The notes under the pieces were generated by a model. The model was not told the DNA's origin. It searched no databases and saw nothing but the letters and a program-made list of their open reading frames with translations. Source: a candidate division WOR-3 bacterium (GTDB taxonomy: Bacteria; Hydrothermota; Tepidihabitantia; SM23-42; JAOAFX01). From it: 23,672 bases of DNA. The translations under genes were made by a program, and so were the position numbers. Below, piece by piece: positions 494 through 23,000 of the stretch. The stretch lies in NCBI GenBank assembly GCA_039802265.1, contig JBDRWI010000035.1:1-23672 (forward strand), written 5' to 3'. Positions within the stretch are counted from its first letter, which is position 1, and each line of letters begins with the position of its first letter.

Positions 494-1276
494 TTAATAA
501 TGTCCTAAAAGTCCTTTGTCTTTTGCAATTTTTTCACAATATTTAAAGATAAAAAAACCAATTGCCAGATAAAAAAATGCTACAAAAATTGTTAATAGCA
601 AATCGCTCAAAGGCATCTGAAGAATAGAGATTTTATTTATCATACTCTTGTTAATAAGTTTTGTGCCCAGGGTAAATGGTAATAATTTAAATCCTGGGTA
701 CTTATCAACCGGCAGGGCAATGAAACCAACAAAGATAAATTGCAAAATCTGGAAGAAAGACTGGATTTTTTTGAATATCAAACCAAGGCCACCAACAATA
801 AATCCAATTCCATAACCACAGGCAACAGTGCAGAGTAATAAGGGAATTAAGGTCAAGAGGTCAAGGTGTAAGTATCGGCCAGTAGTTACCATCATCAATA
901 AAAGGATGGGTATAACCCAGAAAAGACCCCAGAGGAAGTTGGCGACGATTGTGTATATTGCAACTGCACGATAGCCGAGTGGTGTCATATACAACTGTTC
1001 AAGGGTGCCTGACCTTGCCTCTTGAGTGATGCCCCAGGATAATATGCTGTAAGCACCGATTGCATAGGTCCAGACAAAGAAACCAACAATAAATGCCTCA
1101 AGGGTCTTTGCGCCGGAAGGTAGATTACTGCCCAAGACATTGTAGCCAAAGAAAAAGACCAGAAATACGAGATAGATCGTAATAATCCCGGAGATTGTAT
1201 TAAATGGATAACGCTTCAATTCAATCCAATCTTTGATAAAAATCATCTTAAACAAATTCCAGTGCCTACTTCTCAT
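494..1276 (-). CDS. ABC-2 type transporter permease
   Basis: 260 aa with about six hydrophobic segments and an EARSGTLEQLYMTP motif typical of ABC-2 permeases. Overlaps the end of the upstream ATPase. Confidence 0.9.
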   Translation of the reverse strand: MRSRHWNLFKMIFIKDWIELKRYPFNTISGIITIYLVFLVFFFGYNVLGSNLPSGAKTLEAFIVGFFVWTYAIGAYSILSWGITQEARSGTLEQLYMTPLGYRAVAIYTIVANFLWGLFWVIPILLLMMVTTGRYLHLDLLTLIPLLLCTVACGYGIGFIVGGLGLIFKKIQSFFQILQFIFVGFIALPVDKYPGFKLLPFTLGTKLINKSMINKISILQMPLSDLLLTIFVAFFYLAIGFFIFKYCEKIAKDKGLLGHY

Positions 1277-2237
1277 CTTTCACCAACCTGAGATAAATCT
1301 CTTCAAAATCAGGCTCAATATTCTGAATTCCGAGTAATTTGATGTTATTTTTCTTAAGAATTTCAAGGACCTCATAAATCTGCATTGGTTCATCGATGTC
1401 AATATCAATACAGGTCTTTGTTTCATTTGCGATAAATCTTGTCCCGAAGAATTTTTGAGATAGTTCCATTTTAATTTTCTCATCAATTGAATTTATCACC
1501 TCAAAGCGATAGGTATTTATCGCAAAGAATTTCTTTAACCTGCTCACCGACTCATCCGCAATAATCTTTCCCTTATTGATAATTATAACCCGCTCACAGG
1601 TATCCTCAACCAGTTTCATATTATGCGAACTCAAAAGGATTGTCTTGCCTTCTTTGGCAATTTTCGTCCTTAATAATTCCTTTACTTCATTGGTGGTTTC
1701 AACATCAAGACCGAGGGTTGGTTCATCAAGGAGTAGAATCTCAGTATTTTTTATTAAGGCACAGGAGATTGCCAGTTTCTGCTGCATACCCCTTGAGAGG
1801 AAACGCGCCTCAGTATCTACCTTCTCCTTTAGTCCAAAGGTTTCAACAAGTTCTTCAATCTGCGCCTTTACCTCTTTTCGACCGTATCCCATAAGCCCGG
1901 CGAAGAATTCAAGATTCTCCCTTACACTCATCCGCCAGTAAACATTGCGATTCCCCTCAAGGACTGCGGCAATCTTCTCAAAGGCAAAATTTGGCCTTTT
2001 GATAACATCAACACCATCAATAAGTACCATCCCTGAACTGGGGTTTATCAACCGGCACAGACACTTGATAGTTGTCGTCTTACCCGCCCCATTTGGACCC
2101 AAAAATCCAACTATCTCACCTCTTTTTAAAGTAAATGAAATCCCATCAACTGCCCGCACAGTCTGGGTTTTGTTCTTATAAATTTTTGTTAAATTTTCAC
2201 AATAAATTACTTTATTATTATTAAAATTATTAATCAT
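1266..2237 (-). CDS. ABC transporter ATP-binding protein (DrrA/CcmA-like); start probably ATG at 2237 rather than 2246
   Basis: Walker A GPNGAGKTT, signature LSRGMQQK, Walker B LLLDEPT, H-loop SSH. The ATG at 2246 overlaps the -10 box, so the in-frame ATG at 2237 is more likely. Confidence 0.92.
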   Translation of the reverse strand: MINNFNNNKVIYCENLTKIYKNKTQTVRAVDGISFTLKRGEIVGFLGPNGAGKTTTIKCLCRLINPSSGMVLIDGVDVIKRPNFAFEKIAAVLEGNRNVYWRMSVRENLEFFAGLMGYGRKEVKAQIEELVETFGLKEKVDTEARFLSRGMQQKLAISCALIKNTEILLLDEPTLGLDVETTNEVKELLRTKIAKEGKTILLSSHNMKLVEDTCERVIIINKGKIIADESVSRLKKFFAINTYRFEVINSIDEKIKMELSQKFFGTRFIANETKTCIDIDIDEPMQIYEVLEILKKNNIKLLGIQNIEPDFEEIYLRLVKDEK

Positions 2238-2244
2238 ATTGCTC

Positions 2245-2272
2245 ATTATATTAAAATTTTTTAATTTGTCAA
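2245..2272 (-). promoter_or_regulatory. sigma70-type promoter for the second ABC pair
   Basis: Perfect TTGACA-N16-TATAAT on the minus strand, 7 nt before ATG 2237. Confidence 0.75.
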
Positions 2273-2352
2273 TGAGTTGAGGATGGCAATTTTAAAAGAA
2301 TCAATTTTATATCTCCCTTTAATTTCGCACCCTCAATTAGCTTCGAGATGTG

Positions 2353-3111
2353 CTAATAAAAAGTAAGACTTTTTCTGCAAAACCAAAGAAAGAAAGTACC
2401 TTCAATGAAAAGGACAGAGAATAATATTAGTGTTTCTAAATTCAGAGTACCAAAGCAGATTAATCTAATCAACCATGCAGATTGGTGTACTGGTGAAAAT
2501 TTAATTATTGAGGCTAAAGCTTGCGGGAGGCGATTTTCAGGTATCATAACGGGTATTATGAAAGCCAAAAAGTATAAAAGAATTTGGCCAATGAGATTTG
2601 CTTCCAAGGGATTGCGTGCTTTTAGCCCTATAAATGCTCCTAATCCTGCGATAGAGTAAGAACATAAAAAACAAGCCGGTAATAGCAGTATTAATGCCAA
2701 GCTGATATTCAAAGGACACTTGAACAGCAACATTCCCAAGACAAAACTTATCATTGCAGACGGTAAAGCTGCGCAGAACTCAGCTAAGGTAAGAGCAAAT
2801 ACATAAGAACTTACTGAGATTGGCAAAAGAGTAAATAACTCCAATGTGCGTGTCTTTTTATGATTTGCTATCTCCTGCATTAATAGACTAATTGAGCCAA
2901 CGGAAAGCGCTAAGACTATATTCCCTGTGAGCAAATAAAAACTGCCTATTGGATCAAGATTGAACTGGGAGAGTTTGAAAAACAATAAAAAACTTAGTAG
3001 AAAGAGTGGCAACACAAAGAAACGGAGAATAAAACCACTTTTTATTTCTGCCCATCTTATCTGAAACAGTAGACCTATTTCTTCTATTTTATGAAGGAAA
3101 TAATTCATCAT
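2353..3111 (-). CDS. ABC-2 type transporter permease (RiPP cluster)
   Basis: 252 aa, hydrophobic, with an EIANHKKTRTLELFTLLP motif. ATGA overlap with the upstream ATPase. Confidence 0.85.
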   Translation of the reverse strand: MMNYFLHKIEEIGLLFQIRWAEIKSGFILRFFVLPLFLLSFLLFFKLSQFNLDPIGSFYLLTGNIVLALSVGSISLLMQEIANHKKTRTLELFTLLPISVSSYVFALTLAEFCAALPSAMISFVLGMLLFKCPLNISLALILLLPACFLCSYSIAGLGAFIGLKARNPLEANLIGQILLYFLAFIIPVMIPENRLPQALASIIKFSPVHQSAWLIRLICFGTLNLETLILFSVLFIEGTFFLWFCRKSLTFY

Positions 3112-4043
3112 TCAACAATTATTTTGTGATAGATATCTTCTAACGTAGGTGGATATATATACATATTTTCTATATCTTTTTTCTCGTAAAGTAGCTTCAG
3201 GAGAATATTCAATTGCTCTGATTCGGTAATCAATTTCACTTCGGAGCTGTTTATAAAATATACCGGAACCGAGCATACCTGTCGTATCTCATGTATTAGC
3301 TCCTGACGTGTTAGTACATCAAGCGGTATTCTATATCTCACATAGATGGTAAGCTCTTTCCCTAAATTGTTTATTATGGTTTCTGGCCTGTCATCTAAAA
3401 TTATTTTGCCTTTATTCATAAATAAAACGCGGTCAACCCTTTGTTGAATGTCTAGCAGATTATGTGTGACAAGGAATACACTTTTTCCACACTCTTTTAT
3501 CGAAAAAATATAATCCCACAGTATTTTTCGCATTCCAGGTGAAAGATCGTTTGTTGGTTCATCAAGGAAAAAATAATCTGCAGACCCCATTGTGGCGTAT
3601 CCAAAATTCAATATCCTTGCTTCACCCCCGGATAACGAACTTATCGGTCTTTCTTTTTTTCCGGATAAATTGAATTTGTATAAAAAATTCTCAACCGCCT
3701 GTTTAGATTCTTTATGATTCTTATGATTGAGCCTGGCGATTATATATAAAGCATTATACATAGGAAGATCTCCTAATATCCAAGGAACTTGTGGAACATA
3801 GGCAATCCTTGATTTTAATGTTTCTCTGTTTAGAATGAGATCTCTACCATCCAATAAAATATGTCCGCTAGTTGGTTTTAAAATGCCAACTATCTGTTTT
3901 ACCAAGGTCGTTTTCCCAGCGCCATTAGGACCAAGAAGCGCAATTATCTCGCCTTTCTTTATTTGCAAATTGATATTCTCATTTGCCAGTACCCTTTTAT
4001 CTCTTTGGCAATATATCTTTGTAATTCCTATGATTTCTATCAT
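3108..4043 (-). CDS. ABC transporter ATP-binding protein (RiPP cluster)
   Basis: Walker A GPNGAGKTT, signature LSGGE, Walker B FFLDEPT, H-loop VTH. ATGA overlap with the radical SAM gene. Confidence 0.92.
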   Translation of the reverse strand: MIEIIGITKIYCQRDKRVLANENINLQIKKGEIIALLGPNGAGKTTLVKQIVGILKPTSGHILLDGRDLILNRETLKSRIAYVPQVPWILGDLPMYNALYIIARLNHKNHKESKQAVENFLYKFNLSGKKERPISSLSGGEARILNFGYATMGSADYFFLDEPTNDLSPGMRKILWDYIFSIKECGKSVFLVTHNLLDIQQRVDRVLFMNKGKIILDDRPETIINNLGKELTIYVRYRIPLDVLTRQELIHEIRQVCSVPVYFINSSEVKLITESEQLNILLKLLYEKKDIENMYIYPPTLEDIYHKIIVE

Positions 4044-5482
4044 ATTGTTTTGTCAGACAAAACATTAATTGCGTATGCTATAAGTGTCTCTTTAATTACC
4101 TCTTTGCGCATGTCACAGGCATCAAACATGGAAGGTGAAATAAACTTTCTATTTAGGATATATTCACCTGCTGGACAGCCAGTGCAATAGAATTGTAGAT
4201 AACAATCAGCGCACTTTTTATATTGTGCTTTTTCACTAATCTTTCTGTACTTCCTTATAGATTTGCGAAGCGCATAATGAATTTTATCAAAGTCACTAAA
4301 TACATTTTCTATCTTAAACTTATTTAATCCAACGAGTAATTGACATGGATAAATATCTCCTTTTGTTGTTATTGTGAAATTTGATACCCCAAAGTCACAA
4401 AACAATTTGGATGGAGAAGTTGATAAAATTTGGTGCGTAAATATTTGCAACCGTCGAATAAATTTAATTCTTTCGTCAATGTATATGTTTTCTGATATTC
4501 TGTTGACGTCACGTATTCTCTCAAATTGTAATGAAGTTGCAATAGTCTGGGAAAGTGACAGTGAATCGTTTTTTGAAATAACGGGGACAACAATAACATT
4601 AGTAATTCCAAATCTCTTTTCGAAGTAATCTTGCAAATCGGAAGGCGAGATGCCTAAAGTGAGATGTTTTTTGGTATAGGTAACTTCCACAGATATTGGT
4701 TGACCATACGGTTTTAAAATATCTATATTACGAGAAATAATTTGGAAAGATGGTTCACCGTTCTTAAATGGGCGTTGGATATCATTAATACTTGCCGGCC
4801 CATCACAACTAACGATTATATTAAGTTTTTTTTCGCTGGCTAACAATTTTATTAACTCTTGGATTATACCGTTAGATACTGCAAGACTCGTAACTATAAC
4901 AAAATTGGGGTTCATTTTAATCTTACCAGTTAAAGCCAAATAATTTATTCTTTGAATGACATACTTAATGCACGATAAGTTAAGGAGTGGCTCACCCCCA
5001 AAAAACTGTATAGAGTAAATGGCAGGGGAAAATTTTGTAAAAACCGAAATGATTCTTTCCGCTGTTTTAATAGACATTGAAGATGAATCACCATAAGTTC
5101 CGTCCTTAGCGTAACAATATATGCATCGTAAAGTGCATCGCTGGCATATAAGTAGATTTAGACGTCGCAGATATCCGTTATTTAAACAAATATTTTTCCG
5201 ATCGTCTAAAAGAACTTCTAATTCACTCTTCACTTTATTTATTACAATCGCATTTTTTATGACAATTTTTTCTATATCTTCTGGGTCGTTACTGTTGAGC
5301 AATTCATCAAAAAAGTTTGTATGCAGTGTGTCCAATTTGAATATACTAAGTGAAGGGCTGTGCCAAAGAATACTCATAGTCTTATCTTTTGTAGTAAATA
5401 AATAAAGATCCCTTTTGATCTTGTTATAGTTTTTATATAATAGATCAATTATTGTTCTCATAATTATATTATCTAATTTCAA
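4040..5482 (-). CDS. Radical SAM/SPASM-domain peptide maturase; start uncertain (TTG 5482 or ATG 5461)
   Basis: CxxxCxxC (CTLRCIYC) and FFGGEPLL. SPASM cysteines C-x17-C (CDFG...GDIYPC) and C-x2-C-x5-C-x2-C-x19-C. About 100 aa N-terminal extension precedes the radical SAM core. Confidence 0.92.
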   Translation of the reverse strand: MKLDNIIMRTIIDLLYKNYNKIKRDLYLFTTKDKTMSILWHSPSLSIFKLDTLHTNFFDELLNSNDPEDIEKIVIKNAIVINKVKSELEVLLDDRKNICLNNGYLRRLNLLICQRCTLRCIYCYAKDGTYGDSSSMSIKTAERIISVFTKFSPAIYSIQFFGGEPLLNLSCIKYVIQRINYLALTGKIKMNPNFVIVTSLAVSNGIIQELIKLLASEKKLNIIVSCDGPASINDIQRPFKNGEPSFQIISRNIDILKPYGQPISVEVTYTKKHLTLGISPSDLQDYFEKRFGITNVIVVPVISKNDSLSLSQTIATSLQFERIRDVNRISENIYIDERIKFIRRLQIFTHQILSTSPSKLFCDFGVSNFTITTKGDIYPCQLLVGLNKFKIENVFSDFDKIHYALRKSIRKYRKISEKAQYKKCADCYLQFYCTGCPAGEYILNRKFISPSMFDACDMRKEVIKETLIAYAINVLSDKTI

Positions 5483-5556
5483 TCTAAAAACTTTTTATCT
5501 TCATAGAACTAAAGATAAACAACATCAAATTCACTTTATTAAACTAATTATATATA

Positions 5557-5593
5557 CAGTCCCCCCTCCATAAAACCTAGTGAGGAGGGACTG
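5557..5593 (-). terminator. GC-rich stem-loop between precursor and maturase (partial terminator or mRNA stabiliser)
   Basis: Minus strand CAGTCCCTCCTC-loop-GAGGGGGGACTG, a 12-bp stem with one G-U pair, followed by an AU-rich tail without a clean poly-U run. Confidence 0.65.
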
Positions 5594-5616
5594 CATTATC
5601 TTACGCGGTGAGAAGA

Positions 5617-5718
5617 TTACCACACTATGCCACTACATGAACCGCCACAAGCAATAACACCGCAGCCACCAGCACCGGCACCAACGGTCTGTTTTGAATC
5701 TCCATTTAGTCTGATCAT
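5617..5718 (-). CDS. Putative RiPP precursor peptide, 33 aa: MIRLNGDSKQTVGAGAGGCGVIACGGSCSGIVW
   Basis: Translated by hand: ATG at 5718, TAA at 5617-5619, strong SD AAAGGGGGTGA just upstream. Cys/Gly-rich C-terminal half. Lies between the sigma54 promoter and the rSAM/SPASM gene. Confidence 0.88.
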   Translation of the reverse strand: MIRLNGDSKQTVGAGAGGCGVIACGGSCSGIVW

Positions 5719-5809
5719 CTTATTCACCCCCTTTCATTCCACAATTTTGTGGAACGCTGTTTAACCCGTATCCAAACCTTAATCCAACAATCATCTGTTA
5801 AACATATAT

Positions 5810-5826
5810 AGCAATAAGCGTGCCAG
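5810..5826 (-). promoter_or_regulatory. sigma54 (RpoN) -24/-12 promoter
   Basis: Minus strand CTGGCACGCTTATTGCT matches TGGCACG-N4-TTGCW exactly. Predicted start near 5799, about 80 nt before the precursor ATG. Confidence 0.88.
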
Positions 5827-5864
5827 GTATAGACTGTTGAAATTTCAAGAGTTTTAATTTCTTT

Positions 5865-5983
5865 ACTGACATCCTATGTCAGTGGGTTATCCACATTTTA
5901 CTACAAATTTTTAAAAAACTCTTGAAATTTCAAAAATTTTCTTACTGACATAGAATGTCAGTTTTTTGACATAAAATGTCAGT
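5865..5983. promoter_or_regulatory. Three palindromic upstream activator-like boxes (TGACAT-N3-ATGTCA)
   Basis: ACTGACATcctATGTCAGT (5865-5883), ACTGACATagaATGTCAGT (5944-5962), TTTGACATaaaATGTCAGT (5965-5983), all upstream of the sigma54 promoter. Confidence 0.75.
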
Positions 5984-6112
5984 AAAATTAAAATTTGCCA
6001 TTTTTCACCGAAAAATCCAAAAACTTATGAAATTTCATCGCTTTCCACTCAAAATCTATGCATTTTTTGATGATTTTTGTAGTATTCTACATTTTTACGG
6101 GAATAAAGCATG

Positions 6113-6219
6113 CCCTGATGAAAATCAGGGGCCCCTACTCCAATATATAAACAAAAAGATACATCCAAGGGCTAAGGCCCTTGCAACCACAGATTCTTCG
6201 GCTCCGCCTCAGAATGACA
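6113..6219. repeat. Cluster of REP-like hairpin repeats at the 3' end of the activator gene
   Basis: CCCTGAT-GAAA-ATCAGGG (6113-6130), CAAGGGC-TAAG-GCCCTTG (6166-6183), and TGTCATTCTGAGGCGGAGCCGAAGAATCT on the minus strand (6191-6219). Confidence 0.5.
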
Positions 6220-8023
6220 GATAAGGCTCACCTTGATTTCTATTTTCTTTTATCATTTTCAAATACCGATAGAGTTGACGCTCAGAAAGATTGAGTAATG
6301 AGCAGGTCTTTTTAATGTCCTTTTTATTTGTGACAAAGCATTCATAGACTAATTTTGCCTTATATTGCCTAACTTTTTCTTCTATTGAGAGAGGTCGAGC
6401 ATATTCTAATCCCAAATCCTCAACATCAATATATTCTTTCCGGCAGGTAAAGAATGCCTGTTTTAAAATTCCTTCGAGTTCTCGCACATTACCCGGGAAG
6501 TCATAGTTCATCAGACACTTTTTTGCCCGCTCCGTTAATCCGGCAATGAAGCCTTTATGATTATTTCTTATCTTTTGCAATAGATGCTCAATCAAATCAG
6601 GAATTTCTTCTCTCCGCTCACGCAGAGGCGGGATTTTAATAACCGGCGAATGGATTCTGTAGTATAAATCTTCACGGAATTTGCCCTGTTTTACAAGTTC
6701 TTCAAGATTTTGATTTGTCGCAAAGATAAATCTGACATTCACAACCCGCTCTTCGTTGCTTCCCAGGGGAATCACCCGCTTATCTTCCAGAACCCGCAAA
6801 AGTTTTGCCTGGACATCAATGGGCAATTCAGCAATCTCATCAAAGAAGAGCGTGCCCTGATTCGCATATTCAATCTTCCCAATCTTATCATATCGGGCAT
6901 CAGTGAATGCCCCTTTTCTATAACCGAACAACTCGGATTCAAATAGTGTTTCAGGTATTGCTGCACAGTTTACAACGACAAACCGCTCACCAGCCCTTGC
7001 ACTTGAATTATGAATTGCCGATGCAAGCAATTCCTTACCGGTGCCACTTTCACCAAAAAGTAAAAGATTTGTATCCTGGCCGGCAAGATGCCTTGCCCTT
7101 GTCTTTATCTTCTCTATTCCAACTATGTCATCAAATGTATAATTTGCTCCAAACAAATTTATTTTTCTTTTGTTTTTTGCTTCTGTAATTGGCTCAAGAA
7201 TAAACAAAAATTTATCATTATATTCCTTGCGTATGACCAAAAAACTCTTTTCCAGTCGTTCTGATTCAAAAATTTCATTTATTATTGTTCCGGGTCTTAA
7301 AATCTTCTGGTCAAAGGTATGAAGAATGTTTTCTCCGGATTCAAGTTTCAAAAAACTTGTTGCCTTGGGACTCAGCCATCGGATAAAACCATCCTGTTCT
7401 GTTACTACCATAATGACATTCAGGGTGTTGACCAGAGAGATTAAGAAATCGCATTCGATCAACTTTTTGTATTCCTCTTCAATTAATTTTGCCAGAATCT
7501 GCACAAGGGCAAAGGTATGGGGATGTCCCTTCTTTTGAGGATGAACAATAACAACGGCGCCTAACAATTCTCTTTTATAAAAAATTGGGGCACTGAAACA
7601 CGAGCCATTTTGAAAAATTTTTAGATAGTATTCTTTGCCTGAAACATAAAATGGAATTTTGTATTTCAAACAGAGTGCCACTGCATTTGTGCCGGCATCT
7701 TTTTCCTGAAGCGAAACACCTTCTATTAGTCCAATTTTCGAACGGGTCTTCAATACTGACAAAGGACCCACTGCCTTCAGGACATATCCTTCTTTATCAG
7801 TTAGGACAACAATTGACCCGCATAATTTAAATGTCTCACTACAAAAATTCATCAGTGGTAATGCAGAATTGATATAGGTTTGAAGCTCTCTCTGTCTTTT
7901 TCCAATCTCCTCAGAAGAAAGCCTTCTCCCCAGGTAGTTCTTGCTTCTGTCCAGACCACAGGAACTACAGAAATTTTTTGATCTCTCAATTAACTTTTTT
8001 CGGTTATGAATTATAGTCTCCAT
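6209..8023 (-). CDS. sigma54-dependent enhancer-binding protein, AcoR-like (GAF + AAA+ + Fis HTH)
   Basis: GAF-like GTNAVALCL region, Walker A GESGTGKE, ESELFGY-x2-GAFTDA, Walker B FFDEI, FREDLYYR, FPGNVREL, C-terminal HTH (LNLSERQLYRYLK). SD AAAGGGAGG. Confidence 0.93.
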   Translation of the reverse strand: METIIHNRKKLIERSKNFCSSCGLDRSKNYLGRRLSSEEIGKRQRELQTYINSALPLMNFCSETFKLCGSIVVLTDKEGYVLKAVGPLSVLKTRSKIGLIEGVSLQEKDAGTNAVALCLKYKIPFYVSGKEYYLKIFQNGSCFSAPIFYKRELLGAVVIVHPQKKGHPHTFALVQILAKLIEEEYKKLIECDFLISLVNTLNVIMVVTEQDGFIRWLSPKATSFLKLESGENILHTFDQKILRPGTIINEIFESERLEKSFLVIRKEYNDKFLFILEPITEAKNKRKINLFGANYTFDDIVGIEKIKTRARHLAGQDTNLLLFGESGTGKELLASAIHNSSARAGERFVVVNCAAIPETLFESELFGYRKGAFTDARYDKIGKIEYANQGTLFFDEIAELPIDVQAKLLRVLEDKRVIPLGSNEERVVNVRFIFATNQNLEELVKQGKFREDLYYRIHSPVIKIPPLRERREEIPDLIEHLLQKIRNNHKGFIAGLTERAKKCLMNYDFPGNVRELEGILKQAFFTCRKEYIDVEDLGLEYARPLSIEEKVRQYKAKLVYECFVTNKKDIKKTCSLLNLSERQLYRYLKMIKENRNQGEPYLSF

Positions 8024-8129: not shown

Positions 8130-8157
8130 AGTATATTCAAAAAATGTAGTGCGTCAA
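8130..8157 (-). promoter_or_regulatory. sigma70-type promoter for the enhancer-binding protein
   Basis: TTGACG-N16-TATACT, giving a 5' UTR of about 100 nt. Confidence 0.6.
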
Positions 8158-8314: not shown

Positions 8315-9808
8315 TTATCGTTCGATTTTCACAAACCGCATGAACTGTTCACCGTCACTCACAAAATAGACACCAGAGTTAAGGTCAGCGCCAATTTTGT
8401 CGGTTGGATATGTTCTTATAATTCTTCCGCTGATATCGTAAACCGTACAGTATTTTTTTGTACTTCCTTTTAGGATTGCAAAAGAAGACACGGGATCTGG
8501 AACAAGAAATATATTATTTACAATTTTACGCTCTCTTCTATTATCTTTAATCGTGCCTGGATAATATTCATATGCACCTATATCCCAGTAAAGCCCTTGG
8601 GGCCGTGCTACACCAATTATATCATACAAGACTTCAAGGAGTGAATCACCACTGTCAATTGCTGGAGAGAGGGGTTGGAGTCTGAAGTCATTATTTATGG
8701 AATCAACAAACATTGGGTCCTGATTCAGGATATCATGCGGGCCAACTACGGTCGGTGGATTGGCGCCAAAGATAAGGTTATAATCGCCGGATGCAGTTGC
8801 TGTATCAGTCCACCAGTAACTGGTATTGGTGTTGAAAAAGATGTTGTTTCTTACATCTTCATTCTGCGCATACTGACCACTGAATCCAACGCCGTGCCAC
8901 TGGATATAGGCAAAGGTGTTGTTGTAGACCTTTATATTAGAGATATTTTGAACACATAACCCCCATGCCCCACCCCGGGCAAAGATGTTATTTTTAAAGA
9001 TAATATCATGGGAATTATGATAGTAATTTGCTGAGCCCATAAATCCCTGGTGAAAATCAAAACCGCGATTGCCGTCAATCACAACATAACAGGCGTGTTC
9101 ACCATTATTATCAAATGTCTGGAAACAGTCAACATGGGCAGAGCCAATTGAATCAAAGTTAGTCCCGTGAAAATAATTATTTTTAAATAGAATACTATCA
9201 CCGGCAAACCTTGTATAATCACAGTCTCCGGATTGGTAATAGAAAAGGCGTTCAATTTCATTATTTTCAATTATCCAGTTCGTTCCCTGGGCACATATCC
9301 CCATCTGGCAGTGAAAGATTTTATTGTTTGCAATGTAAATACCTCGCGGCCATGGCTGTGACCAATTCCCCTGGATTGCGGGTTTTCGGAAATTTGCAAT
9401 GTAGTTATCAACTATCTCAACATTATCACTGCTGATGAATATTCCAAAATCCCGCCAGCCGGTTAGAGATGTATCCCATTCAATATTAAAACCTTCAATC
9501 CGTATATAACTACCCGCATTCGGTGAATTTGTATCAAAACCCCAGGTCGTGGCGGACCTTCTTGGATGGGATTTGAAGACAATCTTTTGTGCAGGTGTGC
9601 CTGAATGTTGTAAGAGAACCCTTTCTCCATAAAATCCTGGAAGGACAAGCACCGTGTCGCCAGCAATGACTGTGGAGCAGGCATGATTTATATGGCGCCA
9701 GGCAGAGTCCGGGCTTGTGCCTGACAAATTGTCATTACCATTGACTGAGACATAATAGGTTGCGCCATAAGCGCAGGTCAATAAGTATGCATATATTATT
9801 ATTCTCAT
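8315..9808 (-). CDS. Secreted right-handed parallel beta-helix (pectin lyase-like fold) protein with T9SS-like C-terminal tail
   Basis: ATG 9808 after SD GGAGGT, signal peptide, TYYVS..GND..G..P N-terminus, repeated I-x-NN-x-F/I motifs, DFRLQPLSPAIDSG...DIGAYEY region, C-terminal VYDISGR...GVYFV...FVKI. Confidence 0.8.
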   Translation of the reverse strand: MRIIIYAYLLTCAYGATYYVSVNGNDNLSGTSPDSAWRHINHACSTVIAGDTVLVLPGFYGERVLLQHSGTPAQKIVFKSHPRRSATTWGFDTNSPNAGSYIRIEGFNIEWDTSLTGWRDFGIFISSDNVEIVDNYIANFRKPAIQGNWSQPWPRGIYIANNKIFHCQMGICAQGTNWIIENNEIERLFYYQSGDCDYTRFAGDSILFKNNYFHGTNFDSIGSAHVDCFQTFDNNGEHACYVVIDGNRGFDFHQGFMGSANYYHNSHDIIFKNNIFARGGAWGLCVQNISNIKVYNNTFAYIQWHGVGFSGQYAQNEDVRNNIFFNTNTSYWWTDTATASGDYNLIFGANPPTVVGPHDILNQDPMFVDSINNDFRLQPLSPAIDSGDSLLEVLYDIIGVARPQGLYWDIGAYEYYPGTIKDNRRERKIVNNIFLVPDPVSSFAILKGSTKKYCTVYDISGRIIRTYPTDKIGADLNSGVYFVSDGEQFMRFVKIER

Positions 9809-10035
9809 CCGAACCTCCAATAATTATGTCAGACATTGAAACTTATAATCAGAGAAATCTGGATTCTAAATTTTCAGTTATGATTCCCGAGCAGATTCGG
9901 TTTTCAATACTTTCCTTAAGATTCTTCAACCTTTCGGGCTAAGAATGGCATTGCGACACACACTCTTTAATTTTGCAACATATTATTCCCTTGAATATAT
10001 ACGCATAACTGAGCCTAAAAACCGGCAAATTAAAC

Positions 10036-15685: not shown

Positions 15686-16270
15686 TTATGAGGGTAAGGA
15701 TAAAAGCACCCTTTTACATATCTCCTTTAAGGTCTCAAAGACTCCGATTCCTTGAACCGCTACAGCCTCAAAATAGGGATATTTATTCTGGGGATTCAAA
15801 ACCTTCTGGAGTTCTTCAACTGAAGTAATGTTGGGTAGGTCTCTCTTATTATATTGGATAATCAGCGGAATTTTCTCAAGTGACATATTATATGTCTTTA
15901 AATTGTCTTCCATATTCTGGAATGATTCAATATTTTCATCAAACCTCTCAATCTGGGAATCGGCAACAAAGACAATTCCATCCGCACCTTTTAAGATTAG
16001 TTTTCGGGAGGCATTATAGAATACCTGTCCGGGCACGGTATAAAGATGGAATCGCGTCTTGAATCCCTTGATTGTGCCCAGGTCAACAGGCAGGAAGTCA
16101 AAAAATAGTGTGCGGTCAAGTTCGGTGGCAAGGCTGATTAATTTTCCTTTTATCTCGGGATTGAGTTTTGAATAAATATATTTTATATTCGTCGTCTTGC
16201 CTCCGAGTCCCGGACCATAGTATACAATCTTGCAATTGATTTCCCTTGATGCGTAGTTAATTAAGGCCAT
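15686..16270 (-). CDS. mglA: MglA small Ras-like GTPase
   Basis: MALINYASREINCKIVYYGPGLGGKTTN, RTLFFDFLP, TVPGQVFY, QYNKRD. Start set at ATG 16270 from the family N-terminus. Confidence 0.93.
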   Translation of the reverse strand: MALINYASREINCKIVYYGPGLGGKTTNIKYIYSKLNPEIKGKLISLATELDRTLFFDFLPVDLGTIKGFKTRFHLYTVPGQVFYNASRKLILKGADGIVFVADSQIERFDENIESFQNMEDNLKTYNMSLEKIPLIIQYNKRDLPNITSVEELQKVLNPQNKYPYFEAVAVQGIGVFETLKEICKRVLLSLPS

Positions 16271-16305
16271 CAGTGCTATTAAATATTGATTGTGTTTTGC
16301 GCATT

Positions 16306-16800
16306 TCAAAAACCAAATAACTTATCCAATTCGTCTTCGGCCGCCTTTGTAAAATCCATATCAAATGGTTTCTGGTTAGTTTCGGTCTTACCAATTTTTG
16401 AAAATATATCTTCAAATATCTTTTCCAGTTCCAGTGCGGTATTCTTTGCCTTTACCCGAACCAATCCCAGTGTCGTGCGCTGGTCAAAAATTACCGCCAA
16501 TATTACCCGATTGGCAATCAAACAGACATATAAATTTTCCTTCTCGCCCTGATGGAATAATGTGGAAAATTCCTTCTCGCCAATCAAGGAGGCAAGCTGG
16601 CTGGTGGCCGCAAAATCTGCGGCCGAGAGTGTAGCAAATGAAGAAACATCAAGCCGTGTGGTATCACCGGCTGAGGTGATAAGTTGACCGGCCTTATCAA
16701 TAAGGAGAATAGTTCGGGCATTTGTTCCCTGCAACAGGCGATTCAATGCCTCGGTTATTGCCCAGAAGTCCTCTTCAAATATATTAAGACCTTCCTGCAT
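16306..16800 (-). CDS. mglB: MglB roadblock/LC7 protein (GAP partner of MglA); start ATG 16800 or 16803
   Basis: LIDKAGQLI, LIGEKEFSTLFHQGE, TTLGLVRV motifs. Directly upstream of mglA. Confidence 0.9.
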   Translation of the reverse strand: MQEGLNIFEEDFWAITEALNRLLQGTNARTILLIDKAGQLITSAGDTTRLDVSSFATLSAADFAATSQLASLIGEKEFSTLFHQGEKENLYVCLIANRVILAVIFDQRTTLGLVRVKAKNTALELEKIFEDIFSKIGKTETNQKPFDMDFTKAAEDELDKLFGF

Positions 16801-16806
16801 CATAAT

Positions 16807-16834
16807 ATTATAAATAGAATTTGACAAAAGTCAA
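16807..16834 (-). promoter_or_regulatory. sigma70-type promoter for the mglB-mglA-dnaE run
   Basis: TTGACT-N16-TATAAT, 6 nt before ATG 16800. Confidence 0.7.
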
Positions 16835-21770: not shown

Positions 21771-21843
21771 GGGGGTGTAGCTCAGCTGGGAGAGCAATGC
21801 GTTTGCAACGCATAGGTCAGCGGTTCGACTCCGCTCACCTCCA
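21771..21843 (+). tRNA. tRNA-Ala (anticodon TGC), CCA not encoded
   Basis: Acceptor stem GGGGGTG/CACCTCC with G3-U70, D-arm GCTC/GAGC, anticodon arm ATGCG-TTTGCAA-CGCAT, T-loop TTCGACT, discriminator A followed by ATT. Confidence 0.96.
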
Positions 21844-21851
21844 ATTCGCTT

Positions 21852-23000
21852 ATGGCTAATAACTACTTTCAGGAGAGAAAAGATGTAATCATAAATCTTT
21901 TTATTACCAGTCGGTGTAATGCAAACTGTCGTGAGTGTGTCAATCAAACAATCACATTAAATTCCGGGCTGGATTCTAAAATACTTGAATCTGATGTTGA
22001 CCGGGACACGGCATTGATAAAGACAATTCTTAAAAAACACAAAAATTTACCTACTACAGTTTGTTTTTATGGTGGTGAACCCCTGCTTCTCCCACAAAAA
22101 ATTGTTCAGATAATCCAGCGATTATCGGACAACGGTAGCGATAACCGTCTCAGGTATATGATTTACACCAATGGAGAAAATATTGCTAACTTCTTTAAAA
22201 ATTATCCCCCAGTTGCTCGTAAAATCTGGATTTACGCAGTATCCATTGATGGTGATGAAGTCCAGCATAATAAATTCAGATTGGGCACGGATTTTAAGAG
22301 GATCAAAAAAAATCTGCAATTCATAAAGGAAAGATACAGGGGTAATATCCTGATGTGGTCAACATTGAGAGAAGAACAATCGTTATTAAACTGTTTCAAA
22401 GAATTTGTGAGACTGTATCAAAAGGGACTCGTCAATCATTTCTTCTGGCACTGGTTGGAAACTCCAGAGGAATTCAAAGATTTCCCAAGATATTTTGAAA
22501 GTTATACTGATGAATTTGGGGTTATTGTAGATTCTTATATCAAATATCTGAAAAAGGGAGAACTTCTCCCCATTGCCCATTTAAATGAATTGGTTTTGTA
22601 TCTAATTACTAAAAAAGAACGTGGTCATACTGCCTGTGGAGCCGAACTACCCACCAACTATGACCTTATTGGTGGAAAAGTTCTGGCCTGTGTTGACCTC
22701 CCCTTTAAGCAGGGAAAGGATTTGAAAAAAAATTCCAAAAAATTATTGCGCTTCAAGAAAGAACTCGGATGCAATCAATGTGAAATTCATTTTTATTGTG
22801 GAGGACGCTGTCCGGTGCAGGTCTTCTGCGGGGCCCAGAAAAGAACCAAGCAGTATTGTGATTTATTAAGGGCGCATGTCCAAATTGTCCAATTAAGACT
22901 TGAAGAAATAAAAAATGCGCTAAAAGAGAAAAATCTAACCTTACAGGAAATTTATGACCGTTCCGCCTTTATTGTCAGATACACCGATGTAACACCTTAG
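21852..23000 (+). CDS. Radical SAM/SPASM protein, resembling the AF0577 (TIGR04084)-type putative peptide-modifying family
   Basis: CNANCREC, FYGGEPLL, YTNG, SIDG, SPASM-like ACG...LAC and CxxC-x5-CGGRC...YC. The family call is from memory of motif layout. Confidence 0.85.
   Translation: MANNYFQERKDVIINLFITSRCNANCRECVNQTITLNSGLDSKILESDVDRDTALIKTILKKHKNLPTTVCFYGGEPLLLPQKIVQIIQRLSDNGSDNRLRYMIYTNGENIANFFKNYPPVARKIWIYAVSIDGDEVQHNKFRLGTDFKRIKKNLQFIKERYRGNILMWSTLREEQSLLNCFKEFVRLYQKGLVNHFFWHWLETPEEFKDFPRYFESYTDEFGVIVDSYIKYLKKGELLPIAHLNELVLYLITKKERGHTACGAELPTNYDLIGGKVLACVDLPFKQGKDLKKNSKKLLRFKKELGCNQCEIHFYCGGRCPVQVFCGAQKRTKQYCDLLRAHVQIVQLRLEEIKNALKEKNLTLQEIYDRSAFIVRYTDVTP

Follow-up and report, generated by a model that had tools for sequence, protein, structure and literature searches.

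The locus described here lies on the minus strand between positions 494 and 8023 of a 23,672-nucleotide stretch of DNA from a candidate division WOR-3 bacterium (contig JBDRWI010000035.1; the whole stretch is called the window below). It concerns a ribosomally synthesised and post-translationally modified peptide (RiPP), and it is a chimera, not one self-contained system. The explanation we consider likely is that a horizontally acquired thioether-RiPP cassette, made up of a precursor, a radical S-adenosylmethionine (rSAM)/SPASM maturase with a RiPP recognition element (RRE) and an ABC-2 exporter of the ATP-binding cassette (ABC) kind, has come to occupy an expression slot conserved in the host lineage. 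The activator gene and the promoter with its three boxes are, judged by their distribution, features of that lineage, since the activator is kept in relatives while the cassette changes. By its sequence relatives, the precursor-maturase pair belongs to a small Thermotogota family related to the TM1316 peptide. The stretch is present in public DNA runs, which are hot-spring metagenomes from two studies; RNA runs containing it were not listed, which carries no information about its expression.

An initial annotation had presented the region as a complete sigma-54-controlled RiPP system with its own activator, precursor, maturase and two exporters. Its parts are all found on the minus strand as it described them, and the stop-start overlaps that it read as translational coupling, between the rSAM and ATPase genes and between the ATPase and permease genes, are directly visible. 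The features are as follows (G, C, L and X numbers, here and below, are our labels for genomes, contigs, loci and sequencing runs; GC3 is the G+C fraction at third codon positions).

8130..8157, minus: candidate sigma-70-type promoter of the activator gene, TTGACG-16-TATACT (10 of 12 positions; consensus match only)
6209..8023, minus: sigma-54 enhancer-binding protein (the activator), DhaR/AcoR-type GAF-PAS-AAA+-helix-turn-helix (HTH), loop GAFTDA, recognition helix SERQLYRY; conserved host-lineage gene
6113..6183, minus: two terminator-like hairpins between activator and enhancer; the region overall folds no better than its shuffles (z score -1.08)
5967..5981, unstranded: predicted activator box 1, TGACAT-N3-ATGTCA, at -171 from the end of the -12 element
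5946..5960, unstranded: predicted activator box 2, at -150 from the same point
5867..5881, unstranded: predicted activator box 3, at -71 from the same point
5838..5847, unstranded: palindrome TGAAATTTCA just 5′ of the -24 element; further copies at 5923-5932 and 6028-6037
5810..5825, minus: sigma-54 -24/-12 promoter, TGGCAC-N5-TTGCT (consensus match; rpoN in the genome)
5719..5757, minus: small hairpin and ribosome-binding site, common to the precursor starts of other cassettes (G001, G005, G006, G008)
5617..5718, minus: 33-residue precursor, sequence MIRLNGDSKQTVGAGAGGCGVIACGGSCSGIVW, with Cys19, Cys24 and Cys28
5554..5596 (about), minus: strong hairpin 3′ of the precursor (z -3.96), putatively an mRNA stabiliser or attenuator
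4040..5482, minus: RRE-rSAM-SPASM maturase, CteB-like; start probably the ATG at 5461
3108..4043, minus: ABC-2/DrrA-like ATPase of the cassette; a homologue adjoins a related rSAM gene in an Anaerolineae locus (L338); GC3 0.32
2353..3111, minus: ABC-2 permease of the cassette; homologue in the same Anaerolineae locus
2245..2272, minus: candidate sigma-70 promoter of the second ABC pair, TTGACA-16-TATAAT (12 of 12), overlapping the annotated ATG
1266..2246, minus: second ABC ATPase, host-type and apparently separately transcribed; link to the peptide unproven
494..1276, minus: second ABC permease; orthologues 67-80% identical in 7 of 49 relatives

The activator and its promoter

The three palindromic boxes of the initial annotation compare with 0.01 expected in the window, a number that none of 100 shuffles reached, and they are the sole copies in the 2.3-Mb genome (0.23 expected). 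The -24/-12 promoter, which had been called perfect, does match the full consensus at 5825-5810, and two of 100 window shuffles yield such a site by chance. The gene rpoN, whose presence in the genome had been left for confirmation, lies on contig C24 (164 bits). In Clostridiales most sigma-54 activator sites lie 100-250 bp 5′ of the promoter, and variant loops occur (PMC6615313, partial text); two of the three boxes therefore stand at the usual distance and the third closer. It is very likely that the sigma-54 promoter is opened by the activator, expressed from its own predicted sigma-70 promoter and bound at the three TGACA-N5-TGTCA boxes.

The protein had been described as a GAF-AAA+-Fis activator. 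The GAF domain (PF01590) and the sigma-54 activation domain (PF00158, 215 bits against a Pfam cut-off of 20.2, with the Walker motifs GESGTGKE and DEI) were borne out, while HTH_8 was not listed at E≤0.1, though a C-terminal HTH is visible in the sequence; a PAS-like domain, matching the DhaR N-terminus, was absent from that account. The GAF-PAS-AAA+-HTH order is that of Escherichia coli DhaR (PDB 4LRX), which is also the best match of the N-terminal 290 residues in sequence (E 1.5e-10) and in fold (9e-20). DhaR itself is controlled by proteins, PDB 4LRX and 4LRZ being its complexes with DhaK and DhaL. Unlike activators of the DhaR/AcoR type (16% identity), the activator here has the loop GAFTDA, has RiPP cassettes and not catabolic operons (no dha or aco genes) as its predicted targets, and scores 244 of the 551 bits set for orthologues by NF008485.

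Orthologues of the activator (E≤1e-100) are present in 24 of 60 genomes including G000, namely in 12 of the 14 other genomes of the family and 11 of the 31 of the sister family; four of these matches span the AAA-HTH half only, and the three extracted are short GAF-less proteins. The gene sits 3′ of the ATP-synthase operon, as called from the starts of open reading frames (ORFs) only, in seven of 11 upstream regions read. What had been called the cluster's own activator is thus a host-lineage regulator that serves unrelated RiPP cassettes. Its loop reads GAFTDA in 22 of 23 orthologues and GAFTGA in G006. In NorR the same loop change, G266D, gives a protein that is active, constitutive and blind to its GAF domain (PMC2941729, partial text). 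Because this loop frees NorR of GAF repression, and because GAF-less orthologues exist, "signal-inducible" is not supported in the form in which it was proposed, and signal-inducibility of the activator should be regarded as unproven.

The recognition helix of the orthologues takes three forms. Boxes of the type CTGACAT-N3-RTGTCA go with the S[E/A]RQ helix in all nine genomes that have it (as one isolated copy in G002), and TGTCTCA-N5-TGAGAC boxes with the SRAQ helix in five of five, the first box type being found in none of the four searched. The S[P/R]RT helix is accompanied by TGTGACA-N4-TGTCACA in seven of eight genomes, and that box occurs in none of 14 family genomes; cargo was read at a minority of the TGTGACA-N4 sites. 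When a tree was built from the AAA core without the helix, SRAQ required four changes, each forced by well-supported branches. This tree held five of the seven paralogous activators of G000 (C75 was not extracted and C14 has no Walker A match), none of which has the SERQ helix, and left out the orthologues of G016 and G031. The activators of G008 and G010 are 92% identical, yet helix and box both differ. Box sequence and recognition helix appear to have changed together in four separate lineages, and the activator very probably reads the boxes.

A second palindrome, TGAAATTTCA, was absent from the initial annotation and has three copies in the window (at 5838, 5923 and 6028). As a candidate for the activator's own site it was rejected, given its 18 occurrences in the genome and its position before glutamate dehydrogenase, HD-domain and other sigma-54 operons with different palindromes. 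Its recurrence marks it as a general feature of sigma-54 promoters in this order: the pattern TGAAATTTCA-N9-14-TGGCAY-N5-TTGC gave 41 matches in 19 of 48 genomes of the order, and the reversed control none. The palindrome lies 9-14 nt 5′ of the -24 element in many such promoters (window; L140-L219). Three contigs of a Candidatus Stahlbacteria genome (NCBI phylum Ca. Stahliibacteriota), a name which we take to correspond to WOR-3, carry the same promoter signature. The pattern was also met at more than 100 loci in other phyla, many of them Anaerovoracaceae-type Bacillota; some of these may be chance matches. A single DnaA-type box, as we presume this motif to be, lies at 5887-5895 between boxes 2 and 3, where many relatives have a tandem pair (L249, L258, L259, L254); taken alone it is not significant, with 39 in the genome.

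Cargo of the promoters and origin of the cassette

Including the window's, 28 box promoters could be read, with boxes at about -171, -150 and -71 (one has just two boxes and two are cut upstream). A RiPP maturase gene follows 21 of them, and one more is followed by a PqqD/RRE gene at a contig end, which gives RiPP cargo behind 22 of 28 box promoters against none of 18 box-less sigma-54 promoters; for this control, 28 ORFs behind 17 of the 18 (one has no long ORF) were searched with Pfam and gave no RiPP family. The cargo comprises class III lanthipeptide synthetases (one that passes its cut-off in G013, one that is split in G011), SagB/C/D azole sets whose SagB and SagD pass theirs (G024, G032), AlbA-like (G004, G005), YydG-like (G011), B12-dependent (G008, G021, G024) and Clo7bot/CefB-like enzymes (G009, G010, G024), and PqqE- or PapB-like rSAMs. 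Left out of the 28 were two G010 promoters with other palindromes, box promoters whose contig ends ahead of the first ORF (G005:C63 right end, G007:C55, G004:C23) and single boxes standing alone (G002, G013:C41, G022, G027, G033, G061). A hairpin and the ribosome site GGGGGTGA are common to the precursor starts of G000, G001, G005, G006 and G008, which fixes the precursor ATG of the window at 5718.

In the hot-spring runs (compared at likeness 90, contigs only), a 910-nt contig of X2 follows the window from 6099 to 5809 and then passes into unlike sequence, and contigs of X4 and X5 diverge from it around 5862-5915 yet match the activator closely. This hints at strain-level exchange of cassettes, although extra promoter copies could give the same picture. 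That X4 and X5 leave 669-5678 uncovered was given no weight. On balance we lean towards the wider proposal that this uncultured order has a dedicated sigma-54 RiPP slot, in which a single activator, acting with a fixed promoter made up of three boxes and a ribosome site, takes unrelated cassettes from other phyla, exchanged even among close strains, while helix and boxes are re-coded together.

Several side observations concern these promoters and cassettes. Many of the 5′ leaders, between promoter and precursor, contain a conserved structured element that is a candidate new regulatory RNA (L250:1892-2009, L255:5193-5336, L274:11174-11287, L351:412-547, L354:310-427, L049:4449-4595); its consensus has 27 pairs, four of them changed on both sides in six sequences, it has no Rfam match, and it is absent from the window's own leader. 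Five relatives (L246, L251, L252, L257, L260) have a different sigma-54 promoter class, which drives a 63-69-residue signal-peptide protein with a poly-proline end, a small conserved protein and a GAF-HD-domain protein. Other Gly/Cys-rich precursors occur in relatives at L281 (G006:C83), L275 (G009:C8) and L276 (G011:C13), where the PapB-like maturases are more distant (25-30%) and fall in separate clades; one of these loci stands behind a box promoter. A DUF5916-type protein, identified by a Pfam match in L049 and by similar N-termini in the others, is often encoded 3′ of RiPP cassettes or of the second ABC pair (L049, L280, L354, L363, L371, L375).

As for the cassette itself, the 33-residue Cys-rich ORF of the initial annotation is a precursor gene at 5718-5617 with three cysteines, behind a GGGGTG ribosome site and followed by the hairpin that had also been reported; the genome holds no second copy of it. 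The best relative of the maturase in the same 60 genomes is 30-31% identical over about 370 residues. A single-sequence scan of a collection of genome contigs found only three distant rSAM loci, and an alignment-based scan returned, among the matches listed, mostly generic rSAMs. A profile search with the maturase drops sharply after about eight clusters, and the closest maturases, whose named members come from Petrotoga and Thermosipho, are 31-41% identical. Matches at E≤1e-65 were found in 10 of 151 Thermotogota genomes, and nine of the 11 loci in these genomes have a short three-Cys peptide upstream of the maturase, for example MIKLNSMSKYVLACGCFIGSCGNQPAT (L323), MIELKSKESRTPSGGCGGKGCGNCGAVMR (L325) and MQKMPKPVVPNDYLNPGKGCGGAGLVCGWCG (L327). 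In the Anaerolineae locus L338 the peptide is MKAIALLPSGPNGPQARGGCAGGNACGNCAAMT, and the first ABC pair has homologues there at 35%. The window peptide and its relatives share an MIxL leader start and a CG motif at identities of 23-36%, and none of the family's precursors seen lacks the three cysteines in a Gly-rich core. Inspection of the neighbourhoods of homologous maturases, which the initial annotation had proposed, thus gave three-Cys, Gly-rich peptides next to the closest homologues, and the precursor, for which it had recognised no family, is not an orphan: NCBIfam RiPP_TM1316 (NF033413) matches one of nine aligned peptides, that of L327 (E 3.8e-24).

In the Thermotoga maritima TM1316 locus, similarly, a short Gly-rich peptide with three C-terminal cysteines precedes genes for an rSAM/SPASM enzyme and an ABC exporter. 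The maturase that accompanies a TM1316-family peptide is 35.7% identical to that of the window over 384 residues, and both types fall in the same 28-row clade (SH-aLRT 96, in a quick tree with a long branch and midpoint rooting). In contrast to TM1316, the window peptide fails NF033413 (pairwise E 0.095), its exporter is a two-gene ABC-2 pair and not a fused MsbA-type protein, and it is under predicted sigma-54 control. No -24/-12 site was found in eight Thermotogota regions or in the 450 nt before six precursors, and of the ten carrier genomes eight gave no sigma-54 hit, one a hit below cut-off and one a clear hit. Where the host has a GC3 of 0.40, the maturase and the two genes of the first ABC pair have 0.28, 0.32 and 0.33; the activator stands at 0.36 and the second pair at 0.41. 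TM1316 was reportedly treated by Frock et al. in 2013; a chemical characterisation of it was not found in the literature searched. In L321, L323, L325 and L327 a short ORF with a signal-peptide-like start lies just 5′ of the precursor, possibly a secreted signal or an immunity peptide, and S41-type peptidases occur in some related loci. An RRNPP peptide regulator over the Thermotogota loci was considered and not confirmed, none being recognised among the neighbours scanned.

The second ABC pair had been counted as a further exporter of the cluster. It has a full sigma-70 consensus (12 of 12) directly in front, which like the candidate promoter of the activator gene was absent from the initial annotation, host-like codon usage and a location mostly away from RiPP genes: among the seven relatives with a permease orthologue, one has it trailing a RiPP cassette (G005:C88), one contig is too short, and five place it amid unrelated genes. 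Since the promoter overlaps the annotated ATG, the real start of the ATPase is probably the ATG at 2234. By these features the pair is best treated as a host transporter, apparently separately transcribed, which may or may not handle the peptide.

Predicted chemistry and alternative explanations

The rSAM/SPASM gene of the initial annotation is confirmed by TIGR04085 (SPASM, 44.9 against 27 bits). In the structural model the maturase has an RRE of three strands (residues 26-50) and then three helices (52-97; pLDDT 83.7), which no PqqD hidden Markov model (HMM) matched, followed by a partial barrel and a SPASM domain; the CX3CX2C motif is Cys116/120/123, and the SPASM cysteines are 362, 380, 424, 427, 433, 436 and 456. 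The best solved relative is CteB (sequence E 6e-40, Foldseek 9e-21), and Cys362/380/436 and Cys424/427/433/456 align with the ligands of its auxiliary clusters 1 and 2 as assigned in PMC10177961 (partial text). Auxiliary cluster 1, having three cysteines, would therefore leave an open site for the substrate thiol. From the CteB-like fold, the seven-Cys match and this open site we infer that thioether formation is the likeliest reaction of the maturase.

The RRE-rSAM-SPASM layout, the seven-Cys SPASM domain and the three-Cys auxiliary cluster 1 are common to CteB (SCIFF/thermocellin, PDB 5WGG/5WHY), PapB (freyrasin) and Tte1186. The maturase differs from these in its 20-22% structural identity and in HMM scores under cut-off, and the precursor has no CX3D, core Thr acceptor or set of six cysteines. 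With PapB and freyrasin the model score is 158 of 340 bits (NF047865), and no Asp follows precursor residue 7, hence the lack of CX3D; with SCIFF and CteB it is 120 of 425 bits (TIGR03974), the precursor has three cysteines and not six, and the SCIFF-named rows form a separate clade. The maturase is below cut-off for the named sactisynthase models too. Because the core lacks Asp, Glu, Asn and Thr, short S-Calpha rings to Gly, Ala, Ser or Ile seem slightly likelier than beta or gamma links of the PapB/CteB type. Streptosactin (GggA/GggB), an unnested sactipeptide, likewise has a small Gly/Ser/Cys-rich core in which only short S-Calpha rings are plausible; unlike the present locus, its cluster has a protease and quorum-sensing control (PMC8172795, partial text for both points), and the GggB model gives 70 of 650 bits here.

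In the pathway that we propose, the activator, expressed from its own sigma-70 promoter, would bind the three boxes and open the sigma-54 promoter, TGAAATTTCA being probably bound by a DNA-bending helper. Precursor, maturase and exporter would share one transcript, on which the hairpin would keep the precursor in excess. The RRE of the maturase would hold the leader while a substrate cysteine occupies the open site that auxiliary cluster 1 offers, giving up to three rings from Cys sulphur to carbon, each with a loss of 2 Da; on family chemistry, ring formation by the maturase seems likely. A host protease would then remove the leader, probably close to the Gly-Gly that precedes Cys19, and export of the product, or immunity, would fall to the first ABC pair. 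The product would most likely serve competition or signalling, and the same activator-promoter pair would be reused across the order for other RiPP classes.

The locus could instead be what the initial annotation took it for, a self-contained, signal-inducible RiPP cluster in which activator, precursor, maturase and both exporters have evolved as a unit and move as one. Its genes are all adjacent and co-oriented, this genome has no further copy of the three boxes, the GAF-PAS input domain of the activator is well conserved, and in G005 the second ABC pair likewise trails a RiPP cassette. Even so we hold this to be very improbable, as it is already largely refuted by the distribution of the activator, the promoter cargo and the Thermotogota carriers: relatives keep the activator while the cassette changes, the Thermotogota cassettes have neither activator nor -24/-12 site in the eight regions read, most of their genomes gave no sigma-54 hit, and the second ABC pair, with a promoter of its own, mostly adjoins genes that are not RiPP genes. 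Alternatively, the activator could be a general regulator of secreted or stress functions with a mobile or duplicated promoter, the RiPP enrichment being a by-product of an integration hotspot. This would suit the non-RiPP genes behind the remaining box promoters (for a protein with a type IX secretion system tail, a GWxTD protein and secreted proteins), the promoter copies themselves, which are near-identical, multi-copy (five in G005, with both box types) and often at contig ends or near insertion-sequence genes, and the close hot-spring strains that turn unlike right after the promoter. The enrichment, however, is strong and extends over at least six unrelated enzyme classes, and exactly the same ribosome site recurs where precursors start; we consider such a hotspot unlikely, if less so than the self-contained cluster.

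Somewhat more room is left for a slot as described in which the maturase carries out other chemistry, such as Cys-Trp or C-C links or epimerisation, or in which free cysteines bind metal, although this too we regard as doubtful. rSAM/SPASM enzymes are chemically diverse, the scores against named maturase models are all far under cut-off, and the window peptide ends in Trp, a residue that TM1316-type peptides have near the end and others lack. Against it stand the three cysteines conserved in Gly-rich cores, the CteB/PapB open-site Cys pattern of the enzyme, and the closest models and structures, which all belong to thioether formers. An acquired thioether cassette in a host-lineage slot is thus the explanation that we retain, and a number of observations weigh against it. 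The maturase is below every named maturase cut-off, PapB being the best; the window peptide alone matched no family model, NF033413 included, and its spacing C-x4-C-x3-C is not strictly kept in relatives. Six of the 28 box promoters head no recognised RiPP gene, one of them being cut by a contig end at 1.1 kb, and the genomes compared are related metagenome-assembled genomes, not independent samples. The helix-box rule has exceptions, in that G005 has one promoter of the other box type, G006 has two box types of which neither is predicted by its helix group, G024 (SIRQ) has mixed box spacings, and G004 and G035 have boxes and no detected activator orthologue. Lastly, no leader peptidase was found among the genes of the cluster, which makes "complete", the word first used for the system, an overstatement.

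Precedent, significance and neighbouring features

Every part of the locus is of a known type, namely a sigma-54 activator, a CteB-like maturase and an ABC exporter, and what makes it interesting is the shared switch more than the single cluster: throughout an uncultured order, one regulator-promoter pair stands before at least six classes of RiPP enzyme that are unrelated to one another. Enhancer-dependent control of natural-product genes has a precedent in Myxococcus xanthus, where sigma-54 and Nla28 control polyketide and non-ribosomal peptide genes; unlike here, those targets are not RiPPs, and the available part of that paper describes no adjacent activator with exchangeable cassettes (PMC7910581). 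The literature search, which did not extend to supplements and most subscription papers, found no description of this activator, of this promoter, of sigma-54-driven RiPP cassettes in WOR-3 or of the exchange of cassettes; this precursor family may appear in the supplementary tables of papers on rSAM-RiPP mining.

If the slot exists as proposed, the promoter signature would find RiPP clusters and their tiny precursors regardless of enzyme class; Rgg/SHP regulators have likewise served the mining of streptococcal RiPPs. An incoming promoter would work only in hosts with a matching helix, and the locus would be one case in which the slot has captured a thioether peptide family that is related to TM1316 and uncharacterised. 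Three helix residues that have repeatedly switched together with their DNA box would amount to a natural specificity code and could yield orthogonal sigma-54 switches, and the cassette offers a short substrate for the chemistry of TM1316-related maturases.

Rfam, run over the window and the leaders of relatives (eight sources), matched only a tRNA at 21771-21843, and there is therefore no known riboswitch in either. Directly 3′ of this tRNA gene (plus strand), a second radical SAM gene, unrelated to the cluster, occupies 21852-23000 (plus strand; best model TIGR04084, 90 of 225 bits). A strong compound hairpin (z -5.39) lies at 380-470, 3′ of the last permease gene, and like sequence in G006 and G009 leaders suggests that it may be a lineage repeat element. 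Upstream of the activator, 8315-9820 (minus strand) encodes a secreted beta-helix protein of the choice-of-anchor Q type with a C-terminal sorting tail, and the genes at 15686-16827 (minus strand) look like a putative MglB/MglA pair of a roadblock protein and a small GTPase.

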